The translations under genes and the position numbers were made by a program. Below, piece by piece: positions 4,073 through 29,934 of a DNA stretch of 64,000 nucleotides. This DNA is from an uncultured Candidatus Berkelbacteria bacterium (GTDB taxonomy: Bacteria; Patescibacteriota; UBA1384; UBA12157), in NCBI GenBank assembly GCA_903877885.1, contig CAIRFN010000011.1:9281-73280 (forward strand), given 5' to 3'. How positions within the stretch are numbered: the first letter of the stretch is position 1; every line of letters begins with the position of its first letter. The notes under the pieces were generated by a model. It saw nothing but the letters and a program-made list of their open reading frames with translations, made no database searches and was not told the DNA's origin.

Positions 4073-4219
4073 AGCATTACTCCTTCTTAATTTAGAAGGC
4101 TCGACATCCTTCTGACCGTTTTACGGCCCTGCCGTATAGCCGTTATTTAGCCATTCAGAATTGAAAGAAGCGCCCTGTCTTATAATATTAAATGTAAAGT
4201 TTGATTTACTTAGTGTCAA

Positions 4220-4248
4220 TGTGGAAACAGTGGATAACCTGTGGATAA
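4220..4248 (-). promoter_or_regulatory. DnaA-box cluster (three tandem boxes)
   Basis: TGTGGAAAC (imperfect), AGTGGATAA and TGTGGATAA at 4220-4248. These are reverse complements of TTATCCACA-type DnaA boxes; the last is a perfect consensus. Confidence 0.5.
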
Positions 4249-4275
4249 GTTCGCTTTGTGTTCGGTTTATACCTA

Positions 4276-4378
4276 AAAATGAGACACAAGTCCTAAAACG
4301 GCCGTAGACTGTCTCATTTGTCTCATTTTCAGGTCAGAAATAGAAAAAATGAGACACAGACCGTCAAAACTGTCTCAA
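4276..4378. repeat. Iteron-like repeats built from a TGAGACA / TGTCTCA inverted-repeat unit
   Basis: AAAATGAGACACAAG...ACTGTCTCATTTGTCTCATTTT and AAAAAATGAGACACAGACCGTCAAAACTGTCTCAAAT. Two direct copies of an inverted-repeat unit plus a tandem TGTCTCATT duplication, in the divergent intergenic region. Confidence 0.45.
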
Positions 4379-4480
4379 ATCTTGCCATTCAACCTGAAAT
4401 CCGCTACAATTGGAGAAGATACTGAAAGGGGCAAAAGGTTCTAGACCGACGTGTCCCGCCATTAAAATAGGGAGGTGGAA

Positions 4481-13037: not shown

Positions 13038-13045
13038 ATCTCAAA

Positions 13046-13143
13046 TTGTCATTCCAGATCGGACGGATTCCGGATCTGGAATCCAGGATATAATTTAAAC
13101 TGGATTCCCGATGTCGGATTACCATCCGACTCGAGAATGACAA
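13046..13143. repeat. MITE-like palindromic element, copy A (perfect 9-bp terminal inverted repeats TTGTCATTC / GAATGACAA)
   Basis: Starts 9 nt after the rpoD stop. Internal hairpins CCAGATCG..CGGATCTGG and GTCGGAT-tacc-ATCCGAC. Shares its ends and the internal CTGGATYCCCGATGTCGG block with copies at 63113-63242 and, inverted, 58355-58420. Confidence 0.55.
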
Positions 13144-13228
13144 ATTAGATGCGATGCTTTAAAACGCACACACCGGCTAAAGCCGGTGGTATTTTATTTT
13201 AATAAAAAACCGATGCGAGGCATCGGAA

Positions 13229-13897: not shown

Positions 13898-14291
13898 GGT
13901 AAAATCATTATAGCTTGTTTTAGGGATTAAGTAAAGATTTTGAGTACAAATTTATCGCCAAAAATATGGTTCAAAAAATGAGCTAAATATCGCGCCTTTA
14001 GGTAAAGTTCGCGAAAAAACACTCATTATTTTAACCTGTTATTTGGACGAAAATAAATATCGAGATACAAAAAAGACCACTGTTTGGTCAATTTTTTCTG
14101 GTTTGTCGATAAGTCGAAATTTAAGGCCGCTACTAGGCATCAAGTCTCGCGACAGACTACTATTGACTATTTTTTTACAATATGATATTTTCTAGTTGAG
14201 TTTATTTATACCTTAACAAATATTTCTGACAGCAAAGACGGTTTCGATTAAATTAAATCGAAGACGTTAAGCCGTCAGAAGGAGCAATCTT

Positions 14292-15350
14292 ATGAATAGC
14301 AAAAACGGTATGTCTATTGGCATCGATCTTGACCAAGCATGGCTTGAATATGCCGAGCAAGGTAAGATCATTAATCAGTTTGTGGCTTATTTCGATGACC
14401 CCGCCGGTTGGTGGAAAACTAATGATATTTTGGAAACCGGAGTAGTTATTAAAGAAGGTAAACCGGTATATTATGCTAAAAATATTACTCAAGAAATAAT
14501 TTTCGAAACCAATAAGCCGATAAAAAGTTTGAATCAAAATCTGGAGGCGGTTTTTATGCCTCACCGCCGGCTTCGCGCCACTGCCGCCAATCCAAAGAGT
14601 CCTGGCCCGCAGGCAGCACCGTCGGATGATCCGCTAAAGTGCGGCTTTTATTGCCAAGATCCTGGTCATCAACATAGTCTATTACCAAGAACGCCGTTAG
14701 CCCTTTTGCCGGTTCTTAACCGCCGTTATTGGGCGATTTTCTATAATTTCTCACCTTTTGAAAAAAATGGTCATTTTATGCTCTTGCCGGTCAGGCTCCA
14801 AGGTGTACATATTGTTTTGACTCACTATCTTCAACATATGGAACTTGGTTTTCTTCAAGATGCGATCAGTTTAATTAGAAAATGCCAAAACTTGCTCATT
14901 TTCTTTAATGCTATTGGTGCTGGCGCCAGTCAAAATCATTTTCATTATCAAGCAATTGCTCATCAATTAGGTAGTTTAGCAATTGAACATAGTGACTCTG
15001 ATCATCCGATTCGGTTCATTGATTTTGATATCAACACTCCTGGTCTGGCTGAAATTGTTTTTAAACATATTCAATTCATCAATCAAACTTTTAGCGGTAA
15101 AACCAGTTATAATTTGATTTTTACCAGTCAAAAACTCTATCTTATACCGCGGGAAAAAGATCATGAAGTTTTAAGAGTTAACAATGATTTTATTACCTGT
15201 TTTGGTGCGGTCGAAGTTGCCGGTCGGCTGATTTGCACCGAAGAAAACCAATTTAACAATGTAACCTCCGAACAATACATTGCCGCTCTTAAGACCTTGT
15301 CTATAAGTAAAGAAAAAATCGACTTTATTAAAGCCGAAAGCATTAAATAA
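14292..15350 (+). CDS. HIT-superfamily-like protein with an HxHxQ motif (GalT/Apa2-like nucleotidyltransferase/phosphorylase branch)
   Basis: Motif GAGASQNHFHYQAIAH (H-x-H-x-Q), as in GalT/ATP-adenylyltransferase-type HIT enzymes. RBS GAAGGAG. Functional assignment is tentative. Confidence 0.4.
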   Translation: MNSKNGMSIGIDLDQAWLEYAEQGKIINQFVAYFDDPAGWWKTNDILETGVVIKEGKPVYYAKNITQEIIFETNKPIKSLNQNLEAVFMPHRRLRATAANPKSPGPQAAPSDDPLKCGFYCQDPGHQHSLLPRTPLALLPVLNRRYWAIFYNFSPFEKNGHFMLLPVRLQGVHIVLTHYLQHMELGFLQDAISLIRKCQNLLIFFNAIGAGASQNHFHYQAIAHQLGSLAIEHSDSDHPIRFIDFDINTPGLAEIVFKHIQFINQTFSGKTSYNLIFTSQKLYLIPREKDHEVLRVNNDFITCFGAVEVAGRLICTEENQFNNVTSEQYIAALKTLSISKEKIDFIKAESIK

Positions 15351-15361
15351 ATTATTAATAT

Positions 15362-15392
15362 TACCCGTTAGATTTGATCTACGGGTTTTTTA
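15362..15392 (+). terminator. Rho-independent terminator after the 14292..15350 gene
   Basis: ACCCGTtAGAT-ttg-ATCTaCGGGT hairpin followed by TTTTTT. Confidence 0.5.
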
Positions 15393-15425
15393 TTACAAAA
15401 AAAGACGGCGATAAACCGTATTTTT
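15392..15425 (+). repeat. 34-bp direct repeat, copy 1 (ATTACAAAAAAAGACGGCGATAAACCGTATTTTT)
   Basis: Second copy at 15805-15838 with one mismatch. The two copies flank a roughly 380-bp segment containing an 84-aa minus-strand ORF. Confidence 0.5.
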
Positions 15426-15489
15426 ACAGGTAGCGTAAAATAATTTCAAATCCCAAACATCAGGTCAAAAGAGAATCGTTCTCTGTCTT

Positions 15490-15522
15490 TTTTAAAATAA
15501 AAATCACCCCGGTTGGGGTGAG
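15490..15522 (-). terminator. Rho-independent terminator for the 15526..15780 minus-strand gene
   Basis: TCACCCC-ggtt-GGGGTGA hairpin with an A-run on the plus side, giving a T-run on the minus strand. Confidence 0.45.
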
Positions 15523-15525
15523 TAA

Positions 15526-15780
15526 TTAGCGTTTTTTACCAGACTCAAGACGGTGACGAAGTTCATTTTCAATAGTAGAAATATTTTTACGATTTATTCC
15601 CGTAGAATCAATAGGTGGAATACATAAGTAGTCACATTGAACATACGATTTAAATTCAGTGATCAATTTATCGTCTGACCATCCTTGTACTTCATCGATT
15701 GTCAAAAGCATAGCATTTCTCCTTGCGATAAGATTCATCGGTGATTTACCGAATAAGACAATTATACACTTTGCCATCAA
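15526..15780 (-). CDS. Hypothetical small protein
   Basis: 84-aa ORF bracketed by the 34-bp direct repeats. No motif recognised. Confidence 0.35.
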   Translation of the reverse strand: MMAKCIIVLFGKSPMNLIARRNAMLLTIDEVQGWSDDKLITEFKSYVQCDYLCIPPIDSTGINRKNISTIENELRHRLESGKKR

Positions 15781-15804
15781 ATTGCCAATGGGTTCTCTTT
15801 TGAT

Positions 15805-15838
15805 ATTACAAAAAAAGACGGCGATTAACCGTATTTTT
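15805..15838 (+). repeat. 34-bp direct repeat, copy 2
   Basis: ATTACAAAAAAAGACGGCGATTAACCGTATTTTT. It lies immediately left of the tRNA-end-like 10-mer at 15852. Confidence 0.5.
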
Positions 15839-15958
15839 TGACAATTAGTTGCAAAGCTCCCTCTAGCCGATATATTCAGAACGAAATACTATGATATTAT
15901 TGTTAATTTAGGCAAAGAAATTGAACTATTAAAATTAGATCCTTGCTTCGACTTTTAG

Positions 15959-16144
15959 CTAATTAGTCTCCTGACGTCGCTTTTGGACCATTTCATAATC
16001 TTCTTTGGTCATTGGTTTGTAGATTAGTTCTACAAGCCGAAGCAGTTTTGTGGCCAACTCTAAAGCGTCTTGATCGTTTAGATCTTTTCCGAACTCTTTT
16101 TTGTAAATCGCCTTAAATTTGTCTAGCGATTCTTTTGAAATCAT
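15959..16144 (-). CDS. Hypothetical small protein (divergent from the island operon)
   Basis: 61-aa ORF, predicted all-helical. A 57-bp divergent AT-rich spacer separates it from the 16202 gene. Confidence 0.35.
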   Translation of the reverse strand: MISKESLDKFKAIYKKEFGKDLNDQDALELATKLLRLVELIYKPMTKEDYEMVQKRRQETN

Positions 16145-16201
16145 AAAAATCCTTGTGTAATTACTATTTTACTGATTATATTATAAGAAAGAGTAAATAA
16201 A

Positions 16202-17479
16202 TTGAAAGATGTAATGAATAAACCTCGGAAAATAACAGATGATGAAATTCAATTTCGCAAAAATGATCTTGAACGGAAGTTTAATTATGCTTATAAACAA
16301 ATGGACGAAAAAAGCTTTTTTATTGGTGTTTCTGATTATACGAATGCAATAGAAAAATCAGGCCTATTAAGATATTTAGTCCACATATCCTTGATTGATA
16401 ATCAATTTAAGATAACGAAGCCAATAGATGATTTATCAATTAAGACGGTCGAAGAAACTATGGACACGTTCAACCAACTTATAAAGATTATGAAGGACAA
16501 CAGGATCGATGAAGCGGATTTTCAATATGAAATCGATCAATACCGCGGATATTCAGAAAATAAAATACAAATGTTAAGTGGATTTGGTAATCAAGCAACT
16601 TCTACAGCCGAAACCGTAGCCAGCCTTTGCTGGTCATTACATCAAAAGGGCTATACTGATCTAGTCAAAAAATTTGCGGAATATAGCCGTGACAAGACAA
16701 TGATTGTTGATTTTTCAGTATCTGAATCTAACAAAACTTTGAGTAAAATGATTAAAAGATTAGAGGAATACCAAATATTCGCCTTATGGAGCGATTGGAA
16801 TAAGTTGACGCTAGTTTATGTTTCAATTTACCTAAGCGATGACTTCTCGGTTTCATATAGAGAAAAAAATGAACAAGCTAATCTGCATAACTTTATAGGA
16901 CTTGTCCAGGAAATGAAAGAAATATTAGGAATCAAAAAGCTAGCGCCCTGGTTATCCCAGTATAGATTTTTTAAAATGGAAGAATTTAAACGGTATTTGG
17001 ACCGAATCCATAATCATATCTTATCTGAAATAGATCGTTTTAGTTTGACCAAAAGAATAGAAAAAAAATCAGATAGCTTGATAAAAACCATTGTTATACC
17101 GAAAGAGAACCCTGACTTTTGTTATTTTGATGGCAGAACCTTCAAGCTACAAACATCTGATGGCGGTATAAAAGCAATAAATTTTTCGCCAACTAAAACA
17201 AAGGGTTCTGATACATATTATCTATTCTCGGCGCTGGTCAATATATTAAAGCAAAAAGGTGAAAGAAAAGATAATATTTGGTTTTTTGCAGATATAACAA
17301 TGGAAGAAATAACAAAACGGGTTGCCGAAGAATTTAATGAGAATAAAGACAGAGATTGGGTCAAAAATACCAAATCTAATCTCAAAAAAGTTATTCCTGA
17401 TGATTTGTTGTCTAATTATATTCAAATTTCTAACTACCAATCGAAAGGTTATAGTTTTGGACTAAAGTTGCCAAAATAG
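16202..17479 (+). CDS. Hypothetical protein (island cargo)
   Basis: 425-aa ORF, first gene of the co-directional cassette. No motif recognised. Confidence 0.5.
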   Translation: MKDVMNKPRKITDDEIQFRKNDLERKFNYAYKQMDEKSFFIGVSDYTNAIEKSGLLRYLVHISLIDNQFKITKPIDDLSIKTVEETMDTFNQLIKIMKDNRIDEADFQYEIDQYRGYSENKIQMLSGFGNQATSTAETVASLCWSLHQKGYTDLVKKFAEYSRDKTMIVDFSVSESNKTLSKMIKRLEEYQIFALWSDWNKLTLVYVSIYLSDDFSVSYREKNEQANLHNFIGLVQEMKEILGIKKLAPWLSQYRFFKMEEFKRYLDRIHNHILSEIDRFSLTKRIEKKSDSLIKTIVIPKENPDFCYFDGRTFKLQTSDGGIKAINFSPTKTKGSDTYYLFSALVNILKQKGERKDNIWFFADITMEEITKRVAEEFNENKDRDWVKNTKSNLKKVIPDDLLSNYIQISNYQSKGYSFGLKLPK

Positions 17480-17632
17480 TTTAATTACACCAAAAATACA
17501 CCAGGCGTAGCTTAGGCGTAAAAGAAACTTGTATTTTACAGGTTTCTTTTTTTGTTGCAGGACTATTGACATTGTTTCGGTGTAAAGCCCTGATTTAACT
17601 TGATTTATGCGTAATGCCTAATTAGGTAACAA

Positions 17633-17854
17633 ATGAATAAAGTAAAAGAACCACAACTAAACCCTTACGAAAGGCTTTATGGTAGAAAGCTTTCCGAAGA
17701 TAAGGTGGCCGAGATGAAAACTAATCTCATCGGATTTTTTAGTTTGCTAATCGAAATAGATAGAGAAAATCACATTGTTAACCAAGAAGAAAATAATTTA
17801 ACAAAAGGAGTAAACAATGACCCACAAAAAGAAACTGGACCAGTCCAGTACTAA
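17633..17854 (+). CDS. Hypothetical small protein
   Basis: 73-aa ORF. It overlaps the next gene, which is a pattern of tight coupling in this cassette. Confidence 0.3.
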   Translation: MNKVKEPQLNPYERLYGRKLSEDKVAEMKTNLIGFFSLLIEIDRENHIVNQEENNLTKGVNNDPQKETGPVQY

Positions 17855-18578
17855 ACCACCTATTACGCCAGAAAACGCACAATTAGCCATACAAACACCT
17901 GTCAATCCAGCCACTCCCCCTCTTAGTAATGAAGCAAATAAACTTAGCCCACAGGATTTAAAAATCATAAATGATGTTAAAACTACGGGCGAACATCAAA
18001 TACCGAGAATAAATAATAATGATATTCAACAAATAAATGATATGGGGGTTCATCAGGTTAAAGATAACAGTCCTATTGTATATGATAAAGGTTCTTTGAC
18101 CCATTTTGCCGAAACTGTTGGTAGCCCAGAAAAATCAGTGCATTTAAGTCCGGCTGAAACTGAACTTGTAGTCAGTAATCCAGATGATGTTTTGCCTAAT
18201 TTTTTTAAAGGTGGATCGAACTCATATTTATATGTTAAAAAAACTCCACAAAACACATTGTCAATCGTGGAGGTTTTAGATGATGGGAGTAAATTGCGTG
18301 TCAGTCACGGCGGTTTTAAAACAACTGAGAACTATTTGAAACCGATGGAAGAATTAAAAAAATCTATCTTGGAGGACGGCGGATCCCTCATTGGTCAGCC
18401 TGGACAAAGTCCAGTGATTAACCCTCAAAAGGGTACTGCCGTGGTGAGCCTTGCCACTAGTCAAGATAGATTATCTAATCCAAGTATCCCACAAAAAGAA
18501 GGTCTTGTCAATCCTCCCCCTCTTAGTAATGAAGCAGGGGGGATAAGGCCAGGAGAGGTGGGAGGAGTTAAAAAATGA
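17817..18578 (+). CDS. Hypothetical protein with internal PPLSNEA repeats
   Basis: 253 aa. NPATPPLSNEANKLSP near the N-terminus and VNPPPLSNEAGGIRPG near the C-terminus. Confidence 0.45.
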   Translation: MTHKKKLDQSSTKPPITPENAQLAIQTPVNPATPPLSNEANKLSPQDLKIINDVKTTGEHQIPRINNNDIQQINDMGVHQVKDNSPIVYDKGSLTHFAETVGSPEKSVHLSPAETELVVSNPDDVLPNFFKGGSNSYLYVKKTPQNTLSIVEVLDDGSKLRVSHGGFKTTENYLKPMEELKKSILEDGGSLIGQPGQSPVINPQKGTAVVSLATSQDRLSNPSIPQKEGLVNPPPLSNEAGGIRPGEVGGVKK

Positions 18579-18892
18579 ACATAACCGAAGTTCAAATTAT
18601 ACCAATTAAACCGAGTGATGGTTTGGTCGGGTTCGCCAGTTTGGTTTTAGATGGCAAAATCTTTCTTGGCTCGATCGGGGTCCATTCAAGACTGGACGGC
18701 AACGGCTACAGAATCACCTACCCCACCAAAAAGGTCGGCGACAGGAACTTGAATATATACCATCCCATCGATCGGGATTTATCTTCAGCCATCGAAACGG
18801 CAATTTGTAACAAATTTAAAGAAGTAATGGAAAAAAGTAATGATCGACACAATAGCTTTAACCCTGAATCAGGACCAGTACAAGATTTTTGA
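18575..18892 (+). CDS. SpoVG-family protein
   Basis: ITEVQIIPIKPSDGLVGFASLVLDGKIFLGSIGVHSRLDGNGYRITYPTKK...IYHPIDRDLSSAIETAI aligns with B. subtilis SpoVG ([44 protein letters not shown]...DIAHPIN...KIQDAVL). Confidence 0.6.
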   Translation: MNITEVQIIPIKPSDGLVGFASLVLDGKIFLGSIGVHSRLDGNGYRITYPTKKVGDRNLNIYHPIDRDLSSAIETAICNKFKEVMEKSNDRHNSFNPESGPVQDF

Positions 18893-19949
18893 CCACAGTA
18901 GATTTAGATCAACTGATTATATAGGGAAAAATAGCTTTACTAAAAAAGTTTATAACCCTGATTTTAACAAAGAAGGATATAAGCCAAGAATCACTCTTTA
19001 TAATAGATTCGGGACCGAACAGATTCGAATTGAATTTTCGGCTCCTAAAATCCTCTTTGGCAATAATTTTGACGAACTGGATGAAAGCGATTTTGATAAT
19101 CTAGTGGCTAAACTCTATAACAATTTATGGGAAATGAAGATCAGAGCATATCCCGATGATTTAAAAAAAGCCAATGTTTCCAAAATAGATTATTCGAAAA
19201 ACTTTGTTTTGGGAAACGGCGTTAAAACTTGGCAAATTCTCAATGAACTCAGTAAAGTTGACCTTACCAGATCAAGTGATATTGAAGAGGTAAAATATCG
19301 TAATAAGGGGCATTGCTTGCATTTGAAGCATACCAACTCACTCGATTTTGCCGTTTACGACAAATGGGCCGATTTGGTTAAGGCTAAAATAAGCGACAAA
19401 CGATCAATTGAAAAAGATAATAAATTACAGCTTAATTTACTGGATTTAATTGAAGACACGAATAAATTGGAGATTATCAGAATTGAAGCAAGGCTCGTTG
19501 ACAGGCAGAAAATCAAAGACATTTTGAAATTATTCTCTTTTAATGATGATCTTACTTTTCAAGGATTATTCAAAAAACATATTGCCAGGGCGGTCCTCGG
19601 CAAGTACTGGCACGAAATAGCCGATGGCTTGGATATTGCAAACATAAGAGACTATGAAGAAATCGATTTGATAAGTTTAATATTGGAATCTGATAAGATG
19701 ACGGCGAACCAAGCCCTCAGGATAGCCTCTGTGATAAATATTTACCAAAAGGGTCAAGTTCTACAGTTAAAAAATCTATTGAGTTCTCACGGCTATGACA
19801 GGTCATTTAGCGAACTTGCAAAGCTTATTCGAACCTTAGATTTGCCAAAAAATTGTAAATATAAAGCCATATTGGGTATTGGCCAGTCTATCGAAGAGAT
19901 GAACAAAACAAGCCTAAAGAATCATCCAAAATTAAAATTTGCAATGTAA
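18840..19949 (+). CDS. Putative rolling-circle replication initiator (Rep_trans-like)
   Basis: N-terminal alternating hydrophobic motif MIDTIALTL, an IRIEFSAPK block and FAVYDKWADL. These resemble the Rep_trans family, whose hallmark is a conserved YDK. Assignment is tentative. Confidence 0.35.
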   Translation: MIDTIALTLNQDQYKIFDHSRFRSTDYIGKNSFTKKVYNPDFNKEGYKPRITLYNRFGTEQIRIEFSAPKILFGNNFDELDESDFDNLVAKLYNNLWEMKIRAYPDDLKKANVSKIDYSKNFVLGNGVKTWQILNELSKVDLTRSSDIEEVKYRNKGHCLHLKHTNSLDFAVYDKWADLVKAKISDKRSIEKDNKLQLNLLDLIEDTNKLEIIRIEARLVDRQKIKDILKLFSFNDDLTFQGLFKKHIARAVLGKYWHEIADGLDIANIRDYEEIDLISLILESDKMTANQALRIASVINIYQKGQVLQLKNLLSSHGYDRSFSELAKLIRTLDLPKNCKYKAILGIGQSIEEMNKTSLKNHPKLKFAM

Positions 19950-19983
19950 ACTAAAGTAAAGTATTATAATAACAGAGGTAATA

Positions 19984-21951
19984 ATGGAAAATAACGAAGA
20001 ATTTTACACATCACAGGAAATTGCCGATAAATTGAAGATCAATATAATGACCGTTTATAGACATATTAATTCTGGTAAATTGAAGGCTATAAAAACAGGT
20101 AAAGATTTCAGGGTTCTCAAGTCCGATTTTGAGGACTATTTACAGAGTAATCAGCAAAGAAATGTTCTTGAAGAAAAAGACAATAAAATTCTTTTTTTAG
20201 AAAAAACGATTGCAAAACTTAAAAATAACATCAAAAAAGAAAGATACGGGTTGAATTGGTTTGATGTCCCTGAGGCCTTCGAGGATGATGTCGAGCATAA
20301 ACTTCCAATATTAAAGGAAGACCAAAAAATGGCGATTGGAACTGAAGATGACCAACCAACTCATATACTTATCGAGGGTGATAATTACCACGCACTCACT
20401 TGCTTAAATTATACTCACAAGGAAAAGATTGATATTGTTTACATCGATCCACCGTATAATACTGGCTCGGATGGATTCAGATACAAGGACAAGAGGATAT
20501 TGGATAAATTTCCCGATGGAACTGATGTACCCGTTGATCATCCATTTAGACAATCTTACTGGCTGTCTTTTATGAAAAAAAGATTGGATTTGACATACGA
20601 TTTAATGAAAAAAGATGGTCTATTAGCTGTCTCTATCGATGACAACGAATATGCCCAATTAAAACTATTATTAGCAGAAAAATTCGGCGACTCAATCAAG
20701 ACAATTGTAGTGAAAATGAGCGAAGCCTCTGGTCTGAAGATGGCCTCTATTAAAAAATCTGGCGGTATACCCAAATATAAAGAGTACTTACTCCTAGCGA
20801 TGAAGGATGGAATTAGAAACCTATCATTCGACTTTATCCCTAAAGAAATTTGGGATAATGAGTATAATCTTATACTTGAAAATTTTTCCTATAACGACTA
20901 CCAGGAATATCTTAATATATTAGATAACAATAATCTCGCTCCTAAAACCGCAACCGAACATCTTGATGAAATTTTCCAAAATGTAAAGATTGGCTCTCTA
21001 GCGGCCACCTTAAAGTCATTAGAAATTCCAAAAAATGAATTATCTAAATGGCTTACAGATAATAGTTGGCGAATTTGCCGCAGCGCAGCTTCTAGTTCAG
21101 TTAAGAGACTCGCTGATGTCAAAAGGATGGATAGTAAACAACAGATTTTTTCTGTAAATTCTGTAAGAGATAATATCCTCTATCTTGTCAAAGGCGACTA
21201 TGACGATGATTCAGCAAGTCCTCGTGTACAATTACTCCTCGCAATCGATAATTTAAGTGTACATCCAGGCGACCTATGGACAGACATAAAAACTACTGGT
21301 CTTGAGGCAGAGGGTGGTGTAGAGTTTAAAAATGGTAAAAAACCATTAGCTCTGTTAAAAAGAATTATATCAAGCATTAACGATAAAAACGCCGTTATAC
21401 TAGATTTTTTTGCTGGTTCTGGGACAACTGGCGAAGCAGTAATGGAGCTGAATCATAAAGATAAAGGAAGAAGACAATTTATTCTAGTTACTAATAACGA
21501 GGGTGGCATTATGACTGAAGTATGCCATCCAAGAATGGTTAATTCTGTCAAAAAGTATAATGGCTCAATAAAATATTATAAGACTGCCTTTGTTGGGGAA
21601 AATAACATTTTAAATTCAACTGACCAGGATAAGCTAGAGTTAGCCTATAATGCTGGTGAGCTCTTGGCAATTGCAGAAAATACTCTTTACGAACAAAAGA
21701 AAAATGAATTTTACCAAATATTTAAAGATAATAATCGCTACACTGCAATATATTTTAGGGAAGAAATGGATAAATACGATGAATTTATTCAGGAAGTTAA
21801 AAAATTAAAAGCTGACGAAATATCCGTTTATATCTTTAGCTGGGAATCTGATGAAACAATATACGAATTTGAAGATATGAAAAATATTAGAATAAAAACA
21901 ATTCCTCAACCAATAGTAGAAATTTATAAGCAAATATATAATTTGGTATAA
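19984..21951 (+). CDS. mod: Type III restriction-modification methyltransferase (Mod) with N-terminal excisionase-type HTH
   Basis: N-terminal HTH (YTSQEIADKLKINIMTVYRHINSGKLKAIKTGKDFRVLKSDFEDYL). MTase motif IV (IDIVYIDPPYNTGSD) and motif I (ILDFFAGSGTTGEAV). It sits immediately upstream of a helicase-type restriction subunit. Confidence 0.8.
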   Translation: MENNEEFYTSQEIADKLKINIMTVYRHINSGKLKAIKTGKDFRVLKSDFEDYLQSNQQRNVLEEKDNKILFLEKTIAKLKNNIKKERYGLNWFDVPEAFEDDVEHKLPILKEDQKMAIGTEDDQPTHILIEGDNYHALTCLNYTHKEKIDIVYIDPPYNTGSDGFRYKDKRILDKFPDGTDVPVDHPFRQSYWLSFMKKRLDLTYDLMKKDGLLAVSIDDNEYAQLKLLLAEKFGDSIKTIVVKMSEASGLKMASIKKSGGIPKYKEYLLLAMKDGIRNLSFDFIPKEIWDNEYNLILENFSYNDYQEYLNILDNNNLAPKTATEHLDEIFQNVKIGSLAATLKSLEIPKNELSKWLTDNSWRICRSAASSSVKRLADVKRMDSKQQIFSVNSVRDNILYLVKGDYDDDSASPRVQLLLAIDNLSVHPGDLWTDIKTTGLEAEGGVEFKNGKKPLALLKRIISSINDKNAVILDFFAGSGTTGEAVMELNHKDKGRRQFILVTNNEGGIMTEVCHPRMVNSVKKYNGSIKYYKTAFVGENNILNSTDQDKLELAYNAGELLAIAENTLYEQKKNEFYQIFKDNNRYTAIYFREEMDKYDEFIQEVKKLKADEISVYIFSWESDETIYEFEDMKNIRIKTIPQPIVEIYKQIYNLV

Positions 21952-21953
21952 AA

Positions 21954-24332
21954 ATGAAGCAATTTAACCCATTAGAATTTCAAAAAGAGACCATAGATAA
22001 ATTATCGAAAGTTTTTGTTGAGACTTGGAAAAAAGGTGGCAAAAAACTCCCCATTGTTTTGAAAGCCCCTACTGGTAGCGGTAAAACTTTTATGGTTGCT
22101 AATTTTATCAGAGGTTTAAATCATTTACCCCAATGGCAAGAAGATAAAGCGTTTATCTGGATTACTTTTAGCGATGATCTTGCTATGCAAAGTAAAGACA
22201 AATTTGCCGAATACTTTGAGAACAATTTAGAGAACAATTTAGTTACTGTCGATGATATAAACAGAAGAAAGCTATTTAACAATGATATTATCTTTCTAAA
22301 TTGGCAAAAAATAGTTTCAAAAAGTGCCGAGACTCGGGTATTAAGGAGACCAGAAGATGAAATAATGCGAAAAGAAAGAGGGGCTTATTGGGAAGACTTT
22401 ATTGACGGAACTCAAAACGATAATCGTGAAATAATTCTCATTATTGACGAAGCTCATAAGAATAAAGGTACAATTCTTGCAAAAGAGATTATTGACTATA
22501 TAGATCCAAAAATCATTTTACATATTACTGCTACACCAGATAAAGAAGATGAACTTGAAGCCTACAGAATGGGTTCAATGGTTGAGGTTAATCGTCCGCA
22601 GGTAGTAGAACAAGGTCTTATCAAAGAAAAAATCGTGGTTCAGACAGAAGAAGATTTATTGAGCCACAAAGGGCAAGATCTTGATAAAGTATTACTTGAT
22701 TTAGGTGTTAAGCGGAGAGAAGAATTAAAGAAAGAATTTAAAGAACTTGGCAAAGATGTAAACCCTTTAATGTTGATCCAGCTACCAAACGATGACAACA
22801 AATTGATTGAAATGGCCAAAGAAACAAAAGAATCGGTTGTAAGTGATTACCTAAAAGAAATTGGAATACCTGATAAAAAAATTGCCAAATGGTTTGATGG
22901 TAGACAAGAGAATATGGAGTTAATAACTGAAAACGATAGTGACACCGACTATATGCTCTTTAAGCAGGCGGCTGGAACTGGTTGGGACTGTCCTCGTGCT
23001 TCCGTTCTCGTAATGTTCAGAGAGATTAAATCTGATAAATTTTACACTCAAACAGTTGGCAGAATACTCAGAATGCCAGAACCAGAGCTTAAAGAAGACT
23101 ACAAAAATAATGAAAATTTAAGAATTGGCTATCTTTACACGAACTATAAGAGGAATCAAGTTGAATTGCCTGATCAATCAGGCAATAATAAGCCATATAT
23201 TCATTTCTCATATCCGAAAGAAGGTGTTAAGAACATAGAGCTACAATCCGAATATATTTCAAGAGTTGATTATGGGGATATTCCAAAATCCTTTAAATTT
23301 CAGCAAAGCTTTATCAAATCAATAAACAAATATTTTGATATAACGGATAACGATATACTTGGGAAAGCCCAAAAAAAATTAGAAAACCAAAAAATAGATC
23401 TTGACGGTAATCTAACCAATAAGATTATCGTTAATGCCGAGTTTAAAGATTTCGATCAATTGAACTACGAATTTAACAAAGAAGGTAGCGATCTTGAAAT
23501 GGAAATGTCTACTAATGACGTTGAAAAAACGTTTAATTATATTTGCTATCAATTACTACAAGAACAGGAAAATAATGAAGCAAAATACACCAATATCGCA
23601 AGGTCTTGGAGTACTCTAAAATCCGCTATAAGAATTTGGTTAAAGAAAACCATTAACGAAGATAGTGATTATTTCTATCGGGTATTCGTTAAAGATATTA
23701 ATAAAGGGGCTTCTAGCAAGTTTAGACCAGCAATAACGAAAGCTTTGATTGATTTTAAGCCGATAGCAAAACAAATAATTGATGAAAAAAAGATTTTGCA
23801 CGAGCAAAAAGAAGCTCCTTTGTTTAAAATCCAAGATGAATATTCATTTACTGAAGACTATACGGATGAAGATCAGAAGCTATGTGTTCTGGATAAGTTT
23901 TATATCTTAATAGATGATTACAAGGGCAAAAAAAATGAGCTTGATTTCAAAAATTATATAGATAGTCTGGATAATTCTATTACTTGGTGGTTTAAAAATG
24001 GTGATTATGGGAAAATATATTACGCCTTAAAATATATGGACTCCGTTGATCAGAAAGAGGCTCTTTTCTATCCAGATTGGATAATCTATTTCAAGGATGG
24101 CAGAATCGGTATATTTGATACAAAAGATGACGAGACTGCTAAATCTCAAGAAACTAAAGATAAGGCCGTTGCGCTTTCTGAAAAAATAAAAGCTCTTGGC
24201 AACAAATATGTTGGTGGTATCATAGTGAAGAGTTCTGGGGTTTGGTATTTTAATGATTCGGTTAATTATGAGTTTGTAAAAGGAAAAATTGAACAAGATA
24301 AAAATTGGAAAAAATTTGAAGGAATATTATGA
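21954..24332 (+). CDS. res: Type III restriction enzyme, Res subunit (SF2 helicase-nuclease)
   Basis: Helicase motif I LKAPTGSGKTFMVANF and motif II IIDEAHK (DEAH box), 792 aa. Start is 3 nt after the mod stop. Confidence 0.8.
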   Translation: MKQFNPLEFQKETIDKLSKVFVETWKKGGKKLPIVLKAPTGSGKTFMVANFIRGLNHLPQWQEDKAFIWITFSDDLAMQSKDKFAEYFENNLENNLVTVDDINRRKLFNNDIIFLNWQKIVSKSAETRVLRRPEDEIMRKERGAYWEDFIDGTQNDNREIILIIDEAHKNKGTILAKEIIDYIDPKIILHITATPDKEDELEAYRMGSMVEVNRPQVVEQGLIKEKIVVQTEEDLLSHKGQDLDKVLLDLGVKRREELKKEFKELGKDVNPLMLIQLPNDDNKLIEMAKETKESVVSDYLKEIGIPDKKIAKWFDGRQENMELITENDSDTDYMLFKQAAGTGWDCPRASVLVMFREIKSDKFYTQTVGRILRMPEPELKEDYKNNENLRIGYLYTNYKRNQVELPDQSGNNKPYIHFSYPKEGVKNIELQSEYISRVDYGDIPKSFKFQQSFIKSINKYFDITDNDILGKAQKKLENQKIDLDGNLTNKIIVNAEFKDFDQLNYEFNKEGSDLEMEMSTNDVEKTFNYICYQLLQEQENNEAKYTNIARSWSTLKSAIRIWLKKTINEDSDYFYRVFVKDINKGASSKFRPAITKALIDFKPIAKQIIDEKKILHEQKEAPLFKIQDEYSFTEDYTDEDQKLCVLDKFYILIDDYKGKKNELDFKNYIDSLDNSITWWFKNGDYGKIYYALKYMDSVDQKEALFYPDWIIYFKDGRIGIFDTKDDETAKSQETKDKAVALSEKIKALGNKYVGGIIVKSSGVWYFNDSVNYEFVKGKIEQDKNWKKFEGIL

Positions 24333-25831
24333 AAGCGGTAATTCTTGCCAGGGTTTCGACCAAAGAGCAAGAAGATCAGGGTCATTCTTTACCCGCTCAG
24401 ATAAGAAAGCTTGAAGAATATGCGGAAAAGCATAATTTTGAGGTAGTTGAAACGTTCTCTTTCTCGGAAAGTGCTGGCAGTAAAATCAGAAAAAAGTTTG
24501 AAGAGGTTCTTAAGTACTTGAAGCAAAATAAAAGCGTCAAGGTTCTTTTATGCGAGAATGTGGACCGATTAACTAGAAACTTTAAAGACGCTGTCGATAT
24601 AGACGAAATGCGTAAAAATAACGGTCTAGAGGTCCATTTTGTTCAAGATGGCTTCTTTTTAAATGCCAAAGCCACAGGCAATCAAATGTTTATGTGGGAA
24701 GCAAAGGTCTTTATTGCCAAACAATACTTGAACAGATTATCTGATGATGTGAATAGGTCTATAGATCAAAAGCTTAGAAATGGCGAATGGCCGACGAAAG
24801 CCCCAATCGGCTACCTGAACGAAACATTAGAAGACGGCAAAAAAGATATATTGCCCGATAGTACTAGAAGGCGTTATATCAAAAAGGCTTTTGAATTATT
24901 CGCTACTGGCAGTTATAGCGTGCCGAAAATCGCTCAAATTCTTGAAGCCGATGGTTTAAGAAATAATAACCCTCAAAAATCGGTTGTGCCTTATAGCCAG
25001 ATGGATATAATCCTGAAGAATCCATTTTATTACGGCGAAATGATTTATAAAGATCAGATCTGGCCCCACCATTACGAACCAATAATCGAGAAATGGCTAT
25101 TTGAAAAATGCAATTCGGTCCGAAATGGTCGGTCCAATACTCTAATTAAATACGCCAGCAAGCCTTTTGTTTTTCGAGGGCTGATCAGATGTGGCGAATG
25201 TGGCTGTATGATCGGTAAAGACCCGAAGAAAGGTTTTAATTATTGTGTTTGTAATCAATTTAAGGGTAAGCATAAAACAGAAATAGTACTTGAAGAAGAC
25301 CTTATTGAGCAAGTTAAAGACGTTTTTCGTAAAATCAGAGTACCTATGGACGTACTTCAGGATCTAAAATTATCATTGGAAAATAACCTTAAGGCCGAGC
25401 AAGAATTTTATGAAACTTCAATTGATCAGTTCAGGAAAGAATACGACGAAAACAAACGAATATTAAAGAAATCTTACCTCGACAATGCCAGAGGGCGTAT
25501 TACAGACGACCAATATGATGAAATCTTCGAAGAAATATCAGCCAGACAAAGCTTCTTAGACAACCAAATGCAAAGGCATACAGAGGGCAACAAAGCGTTT
25601 CTTATGGCCTGTACATACCTTATCAAGCTAACAAACAAAGCACTAGAAATATTTGAAAGTTCGAAACCAGAACAAAAAAGACAACTCATCACCTTCATAC
25701 TTTCGAACTTGAAATTAGAAGGCAAAAAGCTGTCTTTTACTCTGAACGAGCCCTTCGACGCCATCGTCGAATACTCTCAATCAGTAACAAAGCTCCCCGG
25801 GCCCGATTCGAACGGGCGACCGTCTCCTTAA
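24329..25831 (+). CDS. Large serine recombinase (resolvase/invertase N-domain plus recombinase and zinc-ribbon domains)
   Basis: N-terminus MKAVILARVSTKEQEDQGHSLPAQ carries the catalytic Ser context. C-terminal Cys cluster (CGECGCMIG...CVCNQF). 500 aa. The last 13 codons or so are antisense to tRNA-Asn. Confidence 0.85.
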   Translation: MKAVILARVSTKEQEDQGHSLPAQIRKLEEYAEKHNFEVVETFSFSESAGSKIRKKFEEVLKYLKQNKSVKVLLCENVDRLTRNFKDAVDIDEMRKNNGLEVHFVQDGFFLNAKATGNQMFMWEAKVFIAKQYLNRLSDDVNRSIDQKLRNGEWPTKAPIGYLNETLEDGKKDILPDSTRRRYIKKAFELFATGSYSVPKIAQILEADGLRNNNPQKSVVPYSQMDIILKNPFYYGEMIYKDQIWPHHYEPIIEKWLFEKCNSVRNGRSNTLIKYASKPFVFRGLIRCGECGCMIGKDPKKGFNYCVCNQFKGKHKTEIVLEEDLIEQVKDVFRKIRVPMDVLQDLKLSLENNLKAEQEFYETSIDQFRKEYDENKRILKKSYLDNARGRITDDQYDEIFEEISARQSFLDNQMQRHTEGNKAFLMACTYLIKLTNKALEIFESSKPEQKRQLITFILSNLKLEGKKLSFTLNEPFDAIVEYSQSVTKLPGPDSNGRPSP

Positions 25832-25864
25832 CAGGGAGTCGCTCTACCGCTGAGCTACCGGGGA
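25793..25864 (-). tRNA. tRNA-Asn (anticodon GTT)
   Basis: Manual fold of the reverse complement: acceptor TCCCCGG/CCGGGGA, D-arm GCTC-AGCGGTA-GAGC, anticodon arm ACTCC-CTGTTAA-GGAGA, variable CGGTC, T-arm GCCCG-TTCGAAT-CGGGC, discriminator G. CCA is not encoded. Confidence 0.85.
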
Positions 25865-26096: not shown

Positions 26097-26924
26097 TTAG
26101 GTTTTAAGATCAGAGAGATTGATGGTTTGATAGTTTTTTTGTTTTAAGATTTCCAGTAATTTTGGCAACATAATCAAAGTGTTTTTCTTTTCGTGCATCA
26201 AAATGACGACACCGGGTTTAAGTCTTGCCGAAATATAATTCAGGGTTTGCTCTGGCGGCGGACCATTCTTGCCGCGCCAATCTTTCGGATCAATATCCCA
26301 AATAATGACTTTGTGACCCAAACTTTCGGCCACGGTGTCAGATCGCGAATTATGGGCGCCGTAAGGTGGGCGGAAAAAGAGCGGTTTGTGGCCAATCGCG
26401 CCAGTTAAAATTCGATCGGTTTGACAAATTTCCGATCGGTCTTTAGCTGATGAGCAGCTGGCGAAATTGGCGTGAGTAAAACTATGATTGCCGATTTCAA
26501 AACCGGCTTTGGCCAAAGCTTTAATCGAATCGGTTTGATAGGCTGCTTGTTGACCGATAAAAAAGAAAGTGGCGGTGGCGTGATATTGTTTCAGAATTTC
26601 CAAAGCTCTCTGATCGAAAAACTTTTGTGGTCCGTCATCAATCGTAATGGCGACCACACGAGTATTTTTCGGTTCGGGCTTTGACGGTTGTTTAACTTTG
26701 ATTGGTGCCAACAAACTTTTTTTCCAATTTTGATATTGATGGAATTCAACAGATTGGTCAAACCAAAAAGTTGGGGGATTTATCGAAACTGAAATTTTTG
26801 TTTTAATGACGCAGGTTTGAATTATCTGATTTTTACTATTTAAATCGGCATTAAAAGTCGGCATTGAGGCGAAAAAAGTTAATCCTAAAACTAGCAACCA
26901 TTTCATTGGATTTCTCCTTCTCAA
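26097..26924 (-). CDS. Secreted polysaccharide deacetylase (NodB/CE4 family)
   Basis: N-terminal signal peptide (MKWLLVLGLTFFASM). NodB motifs TIDDGPQ, HSFTH and RPPYG. Confidence 0.85.
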   Translation of the reverse strand: MRRRNPMKWLLVLGLTFFASMPTFNADLNSKNQIIQTCVIKTKISVSINPPTFWFDQSVEFHQYQNWKKSLLAPIKVKQPSKPEPKNTRVVAITIDDGPQKFFDQRALEILKQYHATATFFFIGQQAAYQTDSIKALAKAGFEIGNHSFTHANFASCSSAKDRSEICQTDRILTGAIGHKPLFFRPPYGAHNSRSDTVAESLGHKVIIWDIDPKDWRGKNGPPPEQTLNYISARLKPGVVILMHEKKNTLIMLPKLLEILKQKNYQTINLSDLKT

Positions 26925-26991
26925 ACAAATTTTTCAGGAACAGTAATATCAAAATTATAACTTTAACTCATCAATTTCCAAAATTGTCAAT

Positions 26992-27036
26992 AAAAAAATC
27001 GCCTGACCAATTGGTTCGGCGATTTTTTATTTTTTG
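26992..27036 (-). terminator. Rho-independent terminator after the 27045..27410 gene
   Basis: AATCGCC...GGCGATT hairpin at 26997-27024, flanked by an A-run upstream and a T-run downstream. Confidence 0.5.
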
Positions 27037-27044
27037 AGAATTTG

Positions 27045-27410
27045 CTAAGCTTTTACAGCGCTCTTAATACCAGATTTTAAACCATCATAGACAGGGGTGA
27101 TGGAATTAAAATCAGTTCTAACTGTTGCCCAGTCGGTGGCATTTTGAATATCAGTTTTCATTTGGTTCATAATAGTAATATCGTTATTAACAATATTAAT
27201 TAAGAACGATTTGCGGTCAGTAGTGATATTCTTTTTGGCATTGATAATAGTAATTTCTTTATTAAACCAACTTATTTCGGCGTTAATTTTATTGACACCA
27301 CTAGTTTTTTTGGCTGCAATCTGATTAGTATTAGCAGTCGAGGCAAAAGCAATTGCCGGAATTAACACGGCTGCGATTGCGATAGTAACGATTAAAAGTC
27401 TTGTTTTCAT
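27045..27410 (-). CDS. Small secreted protein
   Basis: 121 aa with a signal peptide (MKTRLLIVTIAIAAVLIPAIAFA). Asn/Ile-rich; no motif. Confidence 0.5.
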   Translation of the reverse strand: MKTRLLIVTIAIAAVLIPAIAFASTANTNQIAAKKTSGVNKINAEISWFNKEITIINAKKNITTDRKSFLINIVNNDITIMNQMKTDIQNATDWATVRTDFNSITPVYDGLKSGIKSAVKA

Positions 27411-27495
27411 TTTTACTCCTTTTTAATTATTTTTAATGCATCGACCGAGGCATTTGTTTTTATACTCTTATATTAACACATTTTTTATTTTTGTA

Positions 27496-27520
27496 CTAAA
27501 AAAGGGCCGGTTAAGGCCCA
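27496..27520 (-). terminator. Rho-independent terminator after the 27530..28417 gene
   Basis: GGGCC-ggttaa-GGCCC hairpin with a plus-strand A-run (minus-strand T-run). Confidence 0.45.
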
Positions 27521-27529
27521 GTAAAATAT

Positions 27530-28417
27530 TTACCAGTCATGGAAAAATGGTAAACATTTGATTAAGTTAGTTTTAGAATTGTAACTGAAAATTACTGTAG
27601 ATTGCTCCATACCATCAATAGCAATATTTAAGCTGATAAAACTCCAAATAATAGGAGTTCGCTTCACAAATTCAATATTGAAGCTTTTAAAATAATATGG
27701 ATTTAGTTTGATAAATTTCAGTAATTTGATCCGACTCTCGTCATCCATTTGTTGTAAAATTTTTGTTAAATCATCTTTGTTTATTAATGCTTTTTTAAAT
27801 TCAATAATAAAATGGTTTAGTAGTGGTGAAAAATCTTGTTGAGGAATTTTGCTTAAGAATTCAGGATCGATTTTAATTACAATATCTTTTTTAATACAAA
27901 CATGGCGATTCTTCCAAAATTCTTGATGGTAACTTAACTGATCATCACTAATCCAATGAGCGAGGGTGATATCATTGCAATTTATTTTTTGATTAGCTAA
28001 TTGGCCGTCGATCCAATAAATGATTTTTTTAATCGGATCAAAAATACCGATCATACCGACATAGGTAAGAGATTGATTTTCATCCTCTTGGTTAATTTTC
28101 TCATTCGTATTTAAATTAGAAAAATATATTAATAATAAGCCATTTTTTGACCAGGCAAGACTTAATGCCTGTCCATAACCTTGACCAACACTTTCACTGG
28201 TGGCAGAATCTGGATTTAAAGGGTACGGCCATGTGATTTGTTCAAAGGTTTTGTTGTAGTCGTAACTAACAAAAACCTGTTGACCACTGTCATTAAGTCC
28301 TTGGTCAAGTTTTACACTTATCCGGCCGTCTTTCGGTGACACAAGAATGGTTGGATTGGCCATGATTGGCAAGGTCAGCCATAAACTAACCAATAGCAGA
28401 ATTGTTAAGTTGCGCAT
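27530..28417 (-). CDS. Secreted hypothetical protein
   Basis: 295 aa with a signal peptide (MRNLTILLLVSLWLTLPIMANP). No motif. Confidence 0.5.
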   Translation of the reverse strand: MRNLTILLLVSLWLTLPIMANPTILVSPKDGRISVKLDQGLNDSGQQVFVSYDYNKTFEQITWPYPLNPDSATSESVGQGYGQALSLAWSKNGLLLIYFSNLNTNEKINQEDENQSLTYVGMIGIFDPIKKIIYWIDGQLANQKINCNDITLAHWISDDQLSYHQEFWKNRHVCIKKDIVIKIDPEFLSKIPQQDFSPLLNHFIIEFKKALINKDDLTKILQQMDDESRIKLLKFIKLNPYYFKSFNIEFVKRTPIIWSFISLNIAIDGMEQSTVIFSYNSKTNLIKCLPFFHDW

Positions 28418-28473
28418 TGAACTAACCTCCTTAGAAAGTACTCATATTTTAAAGCATAATTAGGAAATTGTCA

Positions 28474-28502
28474 ATTAAAAAAGCGATTGACAAACAATCG
28501 CT
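28474..28502 (-). terminator. Rho-independent terminator after the Cys-rich protein gene
   Basis: GCGATTG-acaaa-CAATCGC hairpin with a plus-strand A-run. Confidence 0.45.
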
Positions 28503-28522
28503 AGATAGATAGACGAACTAAA

Positions 28523-29158
28523 TCATTCCGGAGAATATTCCTTGGCCTCATTGATTTGCTCAATGGTAATAATATTGTCACGGAGTGAATCATAGAGTTT
28601 CTGAAGGTTTGGTAAATGCGCGTCGCAAGCGGCGATTCGGACTTGAACCTTATCGGGAGCTGATCGGCGGTAAACTGGCCGTGCGCCGCGACCAACCATT
28701 TTAACAATCCTGTGAGCGGCGTCTACACACTGGACTTTGGCAATGATGGCATTAAGGGAAGCGCGGCCAATGCCATCGCGATCTTTGGTGCCACAAATGA
28801 AGCAGGGGCAGACGTCGAAGTAAAATCGACTGGCGGCATGAAAGAATTCGCCGCCGGTTTCCGGTCGAAGATCCGGATTGTCGTAACAGGGCGTGTCACT
28901 GCGCGGATGGGCTTGGAGATTCGGGTAGTAATAACTTCCGTCAAGGTAACGAAAGTTGAGAGAAGAAATCTTTACTCCATCAACTAAAATGCAACAAATT
29001 TTTTCACAATCCTTATTAGTACAGCGCCAACCGACGGTTCCGTGATCTGATTGAATAATATAACCAGAGTGATAACCACAATGCGGGCAACCGTAAAGGT
29101 GGTGATCAGAAGCGGAAACAGCAATGACTGTTTGCTCGGGTTTTATTCCTGTAGTCAT
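28523..29158 (-). CDS. Cys-rich hypothetical protein (putative zinc-binding)
   Basis: RBS AAGGAG 6 nt upstream of ATG 29158 (MTTGIKPEQ...). The ORF track extends to 29203. Multiple CxxC pairs (CPHCGYHSGY, CTNKDCEKICC, CPCFICG). Confidence 0.5.
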   Translation of the reverse strand: MTTGIKPEQTVIAVSASDHHLYGCPHCGYHSGYIIQSDHGTVGWRCTNKDCEKICCILVDGVKISSLNFRYLDGSYYYPNLQAHPRSDTPCYDNPDLRPETGGEFFHAASRFYFDVCPCFICGTKDRDGIGRASLNAIIAKVQCVDAAHRIVKMVGRGARPVYRRSAPDKVQVRIAACDAHLPNLQKLYDSLRDNIITIEQINEAKEYSPE

Positions 29159-29687
29159 GAAATTCTCCTTCGGAATAGATTGTTCAAGGAACATATTTAT
29201 CATTTTATATTATTTTAAGGTTATTTTCAATAGGTTGAATACCCCGTCGGCACTGCCGCGGGAATGAAAACCTATGGAAACAAACTTTTCCGGTAGGAAT
29301 ACCTCGTCAGCTTTGCAGCGAGGTAGTTTATTTTCAAGCCTTTGTATTTCGTCAAATAAAAATCGAATGATTTTTCAATCATATTTGTCTATTCAAATTG
29401 TAAATTGTTTGCCATAATGTAAACATCCCCCAAAACTCGTTTTAGTTCGGGGCGTGTTGCTGGTGTTTACAAAGAACACAATTTTTAGTTGATGCTTGAT
29501 ATCAATTTTGATATTTGTATCAGTTAATTTGTGATTATTCTTTGGCACAAAAAGGCGATTTAGCTAAGCTATTTAATTGTTTTAGTTAAATTTAAAAAAG
29601 CTGTGAGATATCAGTAATTTTTAGAGATTGCCAAAAAATGGCACTTGACAAATATTTTCATATTTGCTTATTTGGTGTACTTAAAAG

Positions 29688-29764
29688 TTATCCACAGTTT
29701 ATCCACAGAAAATATTAAATAATCTAAAATTAAACCTGTTGAAAATAGATTCGAATTATCCACA
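29688..29764 (+). promoter_or_regulatory. Cluster of three perfect DnaA boxes (TTATCCACA) upstream of the giant gene
   Basis: TTATCCACA at 29688-29696, 29699-29707 and 29756-29764, all in the same orientation, inside an AT-rich 730-bp leader. Confidence 0.5.
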
Positions 29765-29934
29765 TCTATTGCGCGCAATTGGTGCTAATGGTAAGATAAA
29801 TAGAGAGTTAACAAACCTGTTATTAACCAAGAAAAAAGGCGAGCGACCGCATTTTTAGTTAACAAATTACATATTATTTTTTATTACGAAAACACGCTTA
29901 AGCGTGAGTTACAGAAATTAATTAGGATATAAAA

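Follow-up and report, generated by a model that had tools for sequence, protein, structure and literature searches.

A candidate DnaA operator in the promoter region of a giant surface-protein gene of Candidatus Berkelbacteria

A 64,000-nucleotide (nt) stretch of contig CAIRFN010000011.1 from an uncultured Candidatus Berkelbacteria bacterium (assembly GCA_903877885.1, positions 9,281 to 73,280; hereafter the window) contains a 28-kb gene for a surface-protein-like product of 9471 amino acids (aa), and a cluster of exact DnaA boxes (TTATCCACA) lies in the spacer upstream of it. We consider it reasonably probable that this cluster serves the giant gene as a DnaA operator within its promoter region. 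The boxes occur in statistical excess, perfect boxes recur upstream of orthologous genes of four other species, and in three of these they hold their position between the same conserved promoter elements. These findings support the link between DnaA and giant-gene expression that an earlier note on this DNA had suggested. The features concerned are listed below in the order of their coordinates.

29159-29934: divergent intergenic spacer of 776 bp, between a 211-aa gene (- strand) and the 9471-aa gene (+ strand)
29410-29427, + strand: conserved 18-mer TGCCATAATGTAAACATC, which reads as an extended -10 promoter, P0 (TGnCATAAT)
29424-29640, + strand: structured P0-P1 segment with three to four hairpins (minimum free energy -55.1 kcal/mol, z -3.9)
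29645-29674, + strand: candidate distal promoter P1, with -35 TTGACA (29645-29650), an 18-nt spacer and -10 TATTTG (29669-29674)
29688-29707, + strand: double DnaA box, two perfect TTATCCACA copies in tandem with a 2-bp gap, beginning about 13 nt past the P1 -10
29733-29740, + strand: conserved motif AACCTGTT, copy 1 (AACCTGT in the window, L021 and L022; AACCAGT in L027)
29756-29764, + strand: DnaA box 3, a perfect copy that stops 4 bp short of the P2 -35
29769-29797, + strand: candidate proximal promoter P2, with -35 TTGCGC (29769-29774), a 17-nt spacer and extended -10 TGgTAAGAT (29789-29797)
29814-29821, + strand: conserved motif AACCTGTT, copy 2, in the putative 5' untranslated region (ACCTG invariant in four species)
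29832-29856, + strand: A-run, small hairpin and T-run (AAAAAAGGCGAGCGACCGCATTTTT); the A-run and a short stem are found in four species
29935-58350, + strand: giant gene, 9471 aa, surface-protein-like

The three exact boxes (29688-29696, 29699-29707 and 29756-29764) all lie on the + strand within 77 bp, precisely as the earlier note had placed them, and stand 179-247 bp upstream of the giant-gene start codon in a stretch with a GC content of 29%. Across the whole window there are four exact boxes, compared with 0.59 expected from shuffled sequences, and outside the spacer trio and a site at 4240 there is none in about 63 kb. Boxes with one mismatch are not enriched in the window (14 observed vs 19 expected); the signal is specific to the perfect 9-mer.

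Orthologous loci were sought with the first 150 residues of the protein (YPAPTHKR...QKFRWYY and the membrane helix) as query, and one ENA contig (L012), a Berkelbacteria genome (L019) and 15 JGI metagenome loci (L020-L034) were retrieved. The closest named genome with a related N-terminus is the complete metagenome-assembled genome Berkelbacteria bacterium GW2011_GWE1_39_12. A profile search for additional N-terminal homologues gave three short matches only, and a scan of viral contigs found no orthologue. Copies of the locus are identical across many assemblies of one metagenome series, the longest contig being 445 kb, and the 776 bp are 100% identical in nine same-species assemblies, which hence offer no strain-level variation to use.

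Among 14 other non-redundant orthologous loci, the 300 bp upstream of the start codon hold eight exact boxes spread over five of the loci, each 74-260 bp from the start codon. About 0.1 would be expected from the three boxes found in the remaining 125 kb of the same loci (Poisson P of about 2e-13). With the window included, the perfect 9-mer is present in 11 instances across six loci.

Three of these loci, L021, L022 (=L023) and L027 (=L035), can be aligned with the window over about 300 bp, and the aligned sequences share one order of elements. The P1 element TTGACAAA, identical in all four species, is followed 18-19 nt later by TATTTT or TATTTG, about 13 nt after that by the tandem box pair, and then by AACCTGT; box 3, CTATTGC (the -35), 17 nt, the extended -10, ACCTGTT, the A-run hairpin and the start codon complete the series. 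The members of the tandem pair are both perfect in the window, with a 2-bp gap, and both perfect in L021, with a 3-bp gap. In L022 a 7/9 box and in L027 an 8/9 box precedes a perfect one, each at a 3-bp gap. Box 3 is perfect in the window, has a counterpart with one mismatch in L021 (TTATACACA) and is missing in L022 and L027; these last two carry an additional inverted perfect box 4 bp after box 2, and L021 has an additional inverted 8/9 box within the P2 spacer. The identity of the boxes is thus kept while their arrangement and orientation vary, which fits a binder that contacts each box as a monomer, as DnaA does, and not a dimeric repressor of fixed symmetry. Two further relatives, L024 and L026, have unrelated leaders, yet between tRNA-Asn and the gene each carries one perfect box with promoter-like hexamers next to it.

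The box cluster appears to lie between two tandem sigma-70-type promoters. P1 would start transcription near 29681, which puts the double box at about +8 to +27. The P2 pattern is found in all four aligned species as TTGCNN followed by 17 nt of diverged sequence ending in TG, one base, and TAAGAT, TAATAT or TATATT (TGnTAnnnT). Because the spacing is invariant while the spacer sequence has diverged, we read P2 as a sigma-70 promoter with an extended -10; its predicted start near 29804 would leave a 5' untranslated region of about 130 nt. The two copies of AACCTGTT stand 81 bp apart, one on each side of P2, and may serve as a binding site for another regulator or as an RNA motif. The stems of the A-run hairpin differ by species (GCG/CGC, AGG/CCT, AGCGT/ACGCT and AGCG/CGCT), and the fold is weak by itself (-4.8 kcal/mol, z -0.85).

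The arrangement resembles one known from Escherichia coli, where DnaA binds nearly all of its non-oriC targets in chromatin immunoprecipitation sequencing (ChIP-seq) as pairs of boxes 2-3 bp apart and a change in the gap abolishes binding (PMC11317965). These double-box targets (purH, polA, mioC and mutH/DARS2; Stringer, Fitzgerald & Wade 2024, PMC11317965) have tandem 9-mers 2-3 bp apart, of which one or both fit the consensus, upstream of a gene, as here, and at purH an upstream box of 7/9 precedes a perfect downstream box, which is the arrangement of L022 (PMC11317965). The window likewise has two tandem 9-mers at such a gap, both of them 9/9, in or next to what its sequence suggests is the promoter region of the target gene. 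A consensus TTATCCACA box also lies between the promoters dnaAp1 and dnaAp2 of E. coli dnaA, both of which DnaA-ATP represses (PMC8203912), so consensus boxes between two tandem promoters are common to both regions. On the strength of the double-box targets and of the box between the dnaA promoters, DnaA is the likely ligand of the cluster and regulation its likely function.

The correspondence is not complete. The E. coli double-box targets serve nucleotide, replication and repair genes, whereas the gene here encodes a giant surface protein of the Candidate Phyla Radiation (CPR), the pair is joined by a third or inverted box, and the site is known from sequence alone. Unlike the E. coli dnaA region, the target is not dnaA, the promoters are deduced from conservation, and no low-affinity sites specific to ATP-DnaA were identified. 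In Caulobacter crescentus and Bacillus subtilis, DnaA directly controls non-replication genes and couples them to the replication cycle (PMC3193534, PMC8203912). Those regulons were defined experimentally, and a giant adhesin-like target in a probable episymbiont is not among their known classes. The mechanism itself, transcriptional control by DnaA at a double box, is well known; the example is new, its phylum is unstudied and its target gene is unusual.

In the model that we favour, ATP-DnaA would bind the box pair cooperatively as a dimer and might oligomerise toward box 3. The bound protein would block transcription from P1 and read-through from the upstream P0 unit and would modulate P2, and transcription of the 28-kb gene would track the cellular level of DnaA-ATP, that is, the status of replication initiation. 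DnaA occupancy, the activity of the promoters and the sign of regulation are what we infer here. Judged from the geometry, DnaA would most likely repress P1 and form a roadblock for transcription arriving from upstream, and an effect on P2 is not predictable from it. It is also conceivable, albeit doubtful, that in this Berkelbacteria-related clade DnaA switches the cell's largest surface protein according to cell cycle or growth state, perhaps together with a small RNA, not described before, from the conserved extended -10 promoter at 29410-29427.

If this more doubtful reading is true, the status of replication initiation would gate how a probable episymbiont builds its attachment apparatus, a 28-kb transcription unit, and this would be a first regulatory circuit defined in the CPR. 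Giant surface proteins of CPR bacteria are thought to mediate host contact, and to our knowledge almost nothing is known about gene regulation in these organisms. A conserved canonical DnaA operator would provide a testable tie between replication status and surface-protein production, through a factor whose recognition of DNA is understood well and open to assay with recombinant protein.

Several observations weigh against the operator interpretation. About half of the orthologous loci lack a box, among them L012/L025, L019/L030 (a complete Berkelbacteria genome), L020 and several short loci, so the regulation would be clade-specific and dispensable. L021, L022 and L027 share leader ancestry with the window, and their boxes are not fully independent observations. 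P0, P1 and P2 are predicted from their sequences, and the P1 -10 is weak (4/6). That the organism's own DnaA prefers this box is an assumption, drawn from how generally domain IV is conserved. Finally, the same data also fit a DnaA-titrating or recycling site that merely resides in the promoter region. In favour of the operator, L012 and L020, which have no boxes, keep a short spacer with a plain TTTACA...TATAAT-type promoter, which shows the boxes to be an addition to a promoter region.

The B. subtilis DnaA-box clusters and E. coli datA, DARS1 and DARS2 consist of a few high-affinity boxes outside oriC, often in intergenic or promoter DNA. The window's boxes could similarly be a DnaA-control locus, either a titration site like the B. 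subtilis clusters and datA or a DARS-like element that reactivates DnaA; it would then serve mainly to tune the initiation of replication, with any effect on the giant gene being secondary. There are three to four high-affinity boxes outside any origin, their position is conserved in several species, and the synteny of the locus with dnaG-rpoD-tRNA-Asn is kept. DARS1 and DARS2 likewise sit in promoter or intergenic regions, and DARS2, upstream of mutH, is a double-box ChIP target. Unlike in those loci, however, the position of the boxes here is tied to the promoter elements of one gene: they are interleaved with these conserved elements and stand at a fixed distance from its start codon. They are also lost completely in some relatives, they number just three to four, and no IHF-type site was recognised. 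We therefore consider a DnaA-control locus unlikely as the primary function, although titration and transcriptional control are not mutually exclusive.

The 9-mers could also be read by a factor other than DnaA, or be conserved for a reason that has nothing to do with protein binding, such as belonging to a structured leader RNA that starts at P0 or P1. They do lie inside a region that is likely transcribed from one of these promoters, and the further conserved motifs there (AACCTGTT twice and the 18-mer) point to extra factors or RNA elements. The conserved unit, however, is exactly the universal high-affinity DnaA 9-mer in all of its perfect instances, and the spacing of 2-3 bp within the pair is that of a DnaA dimer. 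The box is moreover kept in either orientation (L022, L027 and L026), an inversion that an RNA motif would not tolerate. Such a reading is very unlikely.

The earlier note had offered as an alternative that the cluster is an origin-like element. In this explanation chromosome replication in this lineage would start in the region, which would form a complete origin or one half of a bipartite one, away from dnaA. As in the basal unwinding system of bacterial origins (PMC8287927, PMC6669920), a cluster of perfect boxes in the same orientation lies in AT-rich DNA; three fall within 77 bp, where an origin calls for at least three at a spacing of about 100 bp. The flanking genes diverge locally. A permissive search rule for the unwinding module (PMC8287927) asks for one box with three or more 3'-NAN-5' triplets after a spacer of at most 16 bp. 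In the window, box 3 alone passes it: 14 bp further on, after a GC cluster, come five consecutive triplets, one of them GAT. Neither the tandem pair nor any of the aligned sites in L021, L022 and L027 passes the rule, the triplets match 3'-GAT-5' poorly, and the run is not conserved in these three species, so that conserved DnaA-trios with an AT-rich unwinding element are lacking.

Strand asymmetry gives no sign of an origin at the boxes. At four-fold sites, the coding-strand GC skew of + strand genes is -0.03 to the left (4.4-13 kb) and -0.08 to the right (beyond 59 kb), whereas that of - strand genes is -0.41 (26-29 kb), -0.38 (58.6 kb) and -0.24 (below 4 kb). Were there an origin at 29.7 kb, the relation to its left should be reversed; there, + and - strand genes differ with a chi-square of about 16. 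Because the + strand genes are alike on both sides and the - strand genes are much lower, the + strand is G-rich, and thus leading, on both sides. This pattern is expected of one fork passing from left to right through 29.7 kb, and the argument also excludes an origin at a second box pair at 4.2 kb. Cumulative skew climbs through 4-29 kb and has no minimum at 29.7 kb. Gene orientation does not switch either: 38 of the 50 genes across 82 kb are on the + strand, including dnaG-rpoD upstream and ftsH and murJ downstream, and dnaG-rpoD-(tRNA-Asn)-giant gene are co-oriented in the window, L026 and L035.

The earlier note was right that the window contains no dnaA, and none is found in the 9-kb left or 8.6-kb right extension; over this whole interval (-9 to +72 kb) dnaN and the usual origin neighbours are missing as well. 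In the complete genome CP011213.1, no box with at most one mismatch occurs within 1.1 kb at the orthologous locus, which lies at 523.6 of 915 kb. Given the skew, the gene orientation, the lack of a conserved trio module and the absence of boxes in some relatives, we reject the origin, which is very unlikely indeed. The case also serves as a caution that clusters of DnaA boxes alone are insufficient to call origins in fragmentary metagenome assemblies.

Upstream of the putative operator, the P0-P1 segment might encode a novel small RNA or form a long leader with structure. An exact match to TGSCATAATGTAAAYATC occurs only in the window's species, L021, L022/23 and L027/35, which are the same species that share the box layout. 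The orthologous P0-P1 segments (140-220 nt, with little sequence similarity) also form three or four hairpins, with z scores of -3.4, -4.8 and -6.3; in each of the four species the + strand folds more stably than the - strand, and the segment closes with a weak hairpin and a T-run just before P1. Control intergenic regions give comparable z scores of -1.8 to -8.3. Since the controls are equally negative, we rejected the fold score as proof of an RNA gene and kept the strand asymmetry and the conserved 18-mer as hints. An RNAalifold consensus for L022 and L027 (-12 kcal/mol) was set aside as the MAFFT alignment was not structurally meaningful. Rfam 15 gave nothing in the leader at the gathering threshold (best sub-threshold matches 17-24 bits, E 0.4-4) and no consistent family in the leaders of L021, L022 and L027, and a scan of the leader for tRNA and tmRNA found none. 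The strongest fold among the control regions tested is at 13038-13228, downstream of rpoD (-77.8 kcal/mol, z -8.3); it has no Rfam match at the gathering threshold.

The spacer and its left flank contain the following further features.

28523-29158, - strand: divergent 211-aa Cys-rich gene, its start confirmed by gene calls
29237-29266 and 29297-29326: two related hairpins beside the 211-aa gene
29496-29505: palindrome TTGATATCAA, at the apex of the longest hairpin in the P0-P1 segment
29768-29779: palindrome ATTGCGCGCAAT, overlapping the P2 -35
29893-29906: palindrome CACGCTTAAGCGTG, 28 nt before the start codon (fold -6.6 kcal/mol)

The density of symmetric sites in the leader had been taken to suggest multi-factor control of the giant gene. 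All of the palindromes named then exist and CACGCTTAAGCGTG is where it was said to be, but ATTGCGCGCAAT is not at 29770-29781 and TTGATATCAA is not at 29488-29497. Compared with dinucleotide shuffles, perfect palindromes show no significant enrichment: four of at least 10 bp were observed against 1.7 expected (P=0.09), with P=0.10 for at least 12 bp and P=0.14 for at least 14 bp. None of ATTGCGCGCAAT, TTGATATCAA and CACGCTTAAGCGTG is kept in the alignable relatives L021, L022 and L027. With chance frequency and no conservation, palindromes were rejected as operators and the idea of multi-factor control through them was given up. In the window's species the ATTGCGCGCAAT palindrome is the P2 -35 region, and CACGCTTAAGCGTG was reported on the - strand by a terminator scan. 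The direct repeat AGTTAACAAA is present, with its second copy at 29857 and not at 29867.

The two hairpins described earlier also fold (-13.8 and -11.5 kcal/mol) and have related arms, 79% identical over 24 nt, but their limits differ from those first given (29236-29262 and 29299-29330). They are the only two copies in the window, and a BLAST search of that half of the spacer against the relatives' loci gave no match covering them. They probably belong not to the control region of the giant gene but to an inserted block at 26.1-29.2 kb. Relative to L026 and L027, whose tRNA-Asn directly adjoins the leader, this block is an insertion between tRNA-Asn and the leader. It consists of four minus-strand genes at 26097-29158 (polysaccharide deacetylase, 121-aa, 295-aa and the Cys-rich 211-aa gene), and its four-fold-site GC skew is unusually low (-0.41). 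L021 keeps only the 121-aa homologue. The 211-aa protein matched no Pfam family, and its six homologues all lie in unrelated, partly phage-like contexts and are never syntenic with the giant gene elsewhere; with so few homologues and unrelated contexts, the gene was dropped as a synteny anchor for the leader comparison.

The giant protein carries a membrane anchor at its N-terminus, ConA-like/Laminin-G, Fn3 and CarboxypepD_reg domains, and C-terminal hydrophobic segments. It resembles a cell-surface protein because of the anchor and these domains. In a comparison of the window with L002, L004, L005 and L008, the gene is called at 9471 aa in most assemblies, at 9209 aa in L002, and split or truncated in others (e.g., 1253 + 838 aa), which suggests repeat-number variation or assembly collapse in the repetitive body.

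Left of the four-gene block, an integrated element at about 14000-25864 is bounded by tRNA-Asn (25792-25864, - strand) and a serine recombinase (24329-25831); its genes include an N6/N4 methyltransferase, a ResIII/SWI2-SNF2 helicase and a SpoVG-like one. A second strain of the species (L005) lacks the element, and there a GDPGP1-like gene and rpoD come directly after the polysaccharide deacetylase gene. In L022, a group I intron (2255-2467; Rfam RF00028, 86 bits) lies by a GIY-YIG open reading frame and an apparently interrupted tRNA, about 130 bp upstream of that relative's conserved 18-mer.

The second double DnaA box in the window is on the - strand, with an 8/9 box at 4229-4237 and a perfect box at 4240-4248 separated by a 2-bp gap, and a weaker third site is 10 bp off. 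A prophage-like block, with a ParB-methyltransferase gene, a small-terminase-like gene and, further left, a Terminase_6C gene, has this pair in its divergent control region. The boxes are followed, within 4219-4380, by five copies of TGAGACA/TGTCTCA, two of which are exact AAAAATGAGACACA, and the region has the look of a phage's operator or replication-control site at which host DnaA is used as well.

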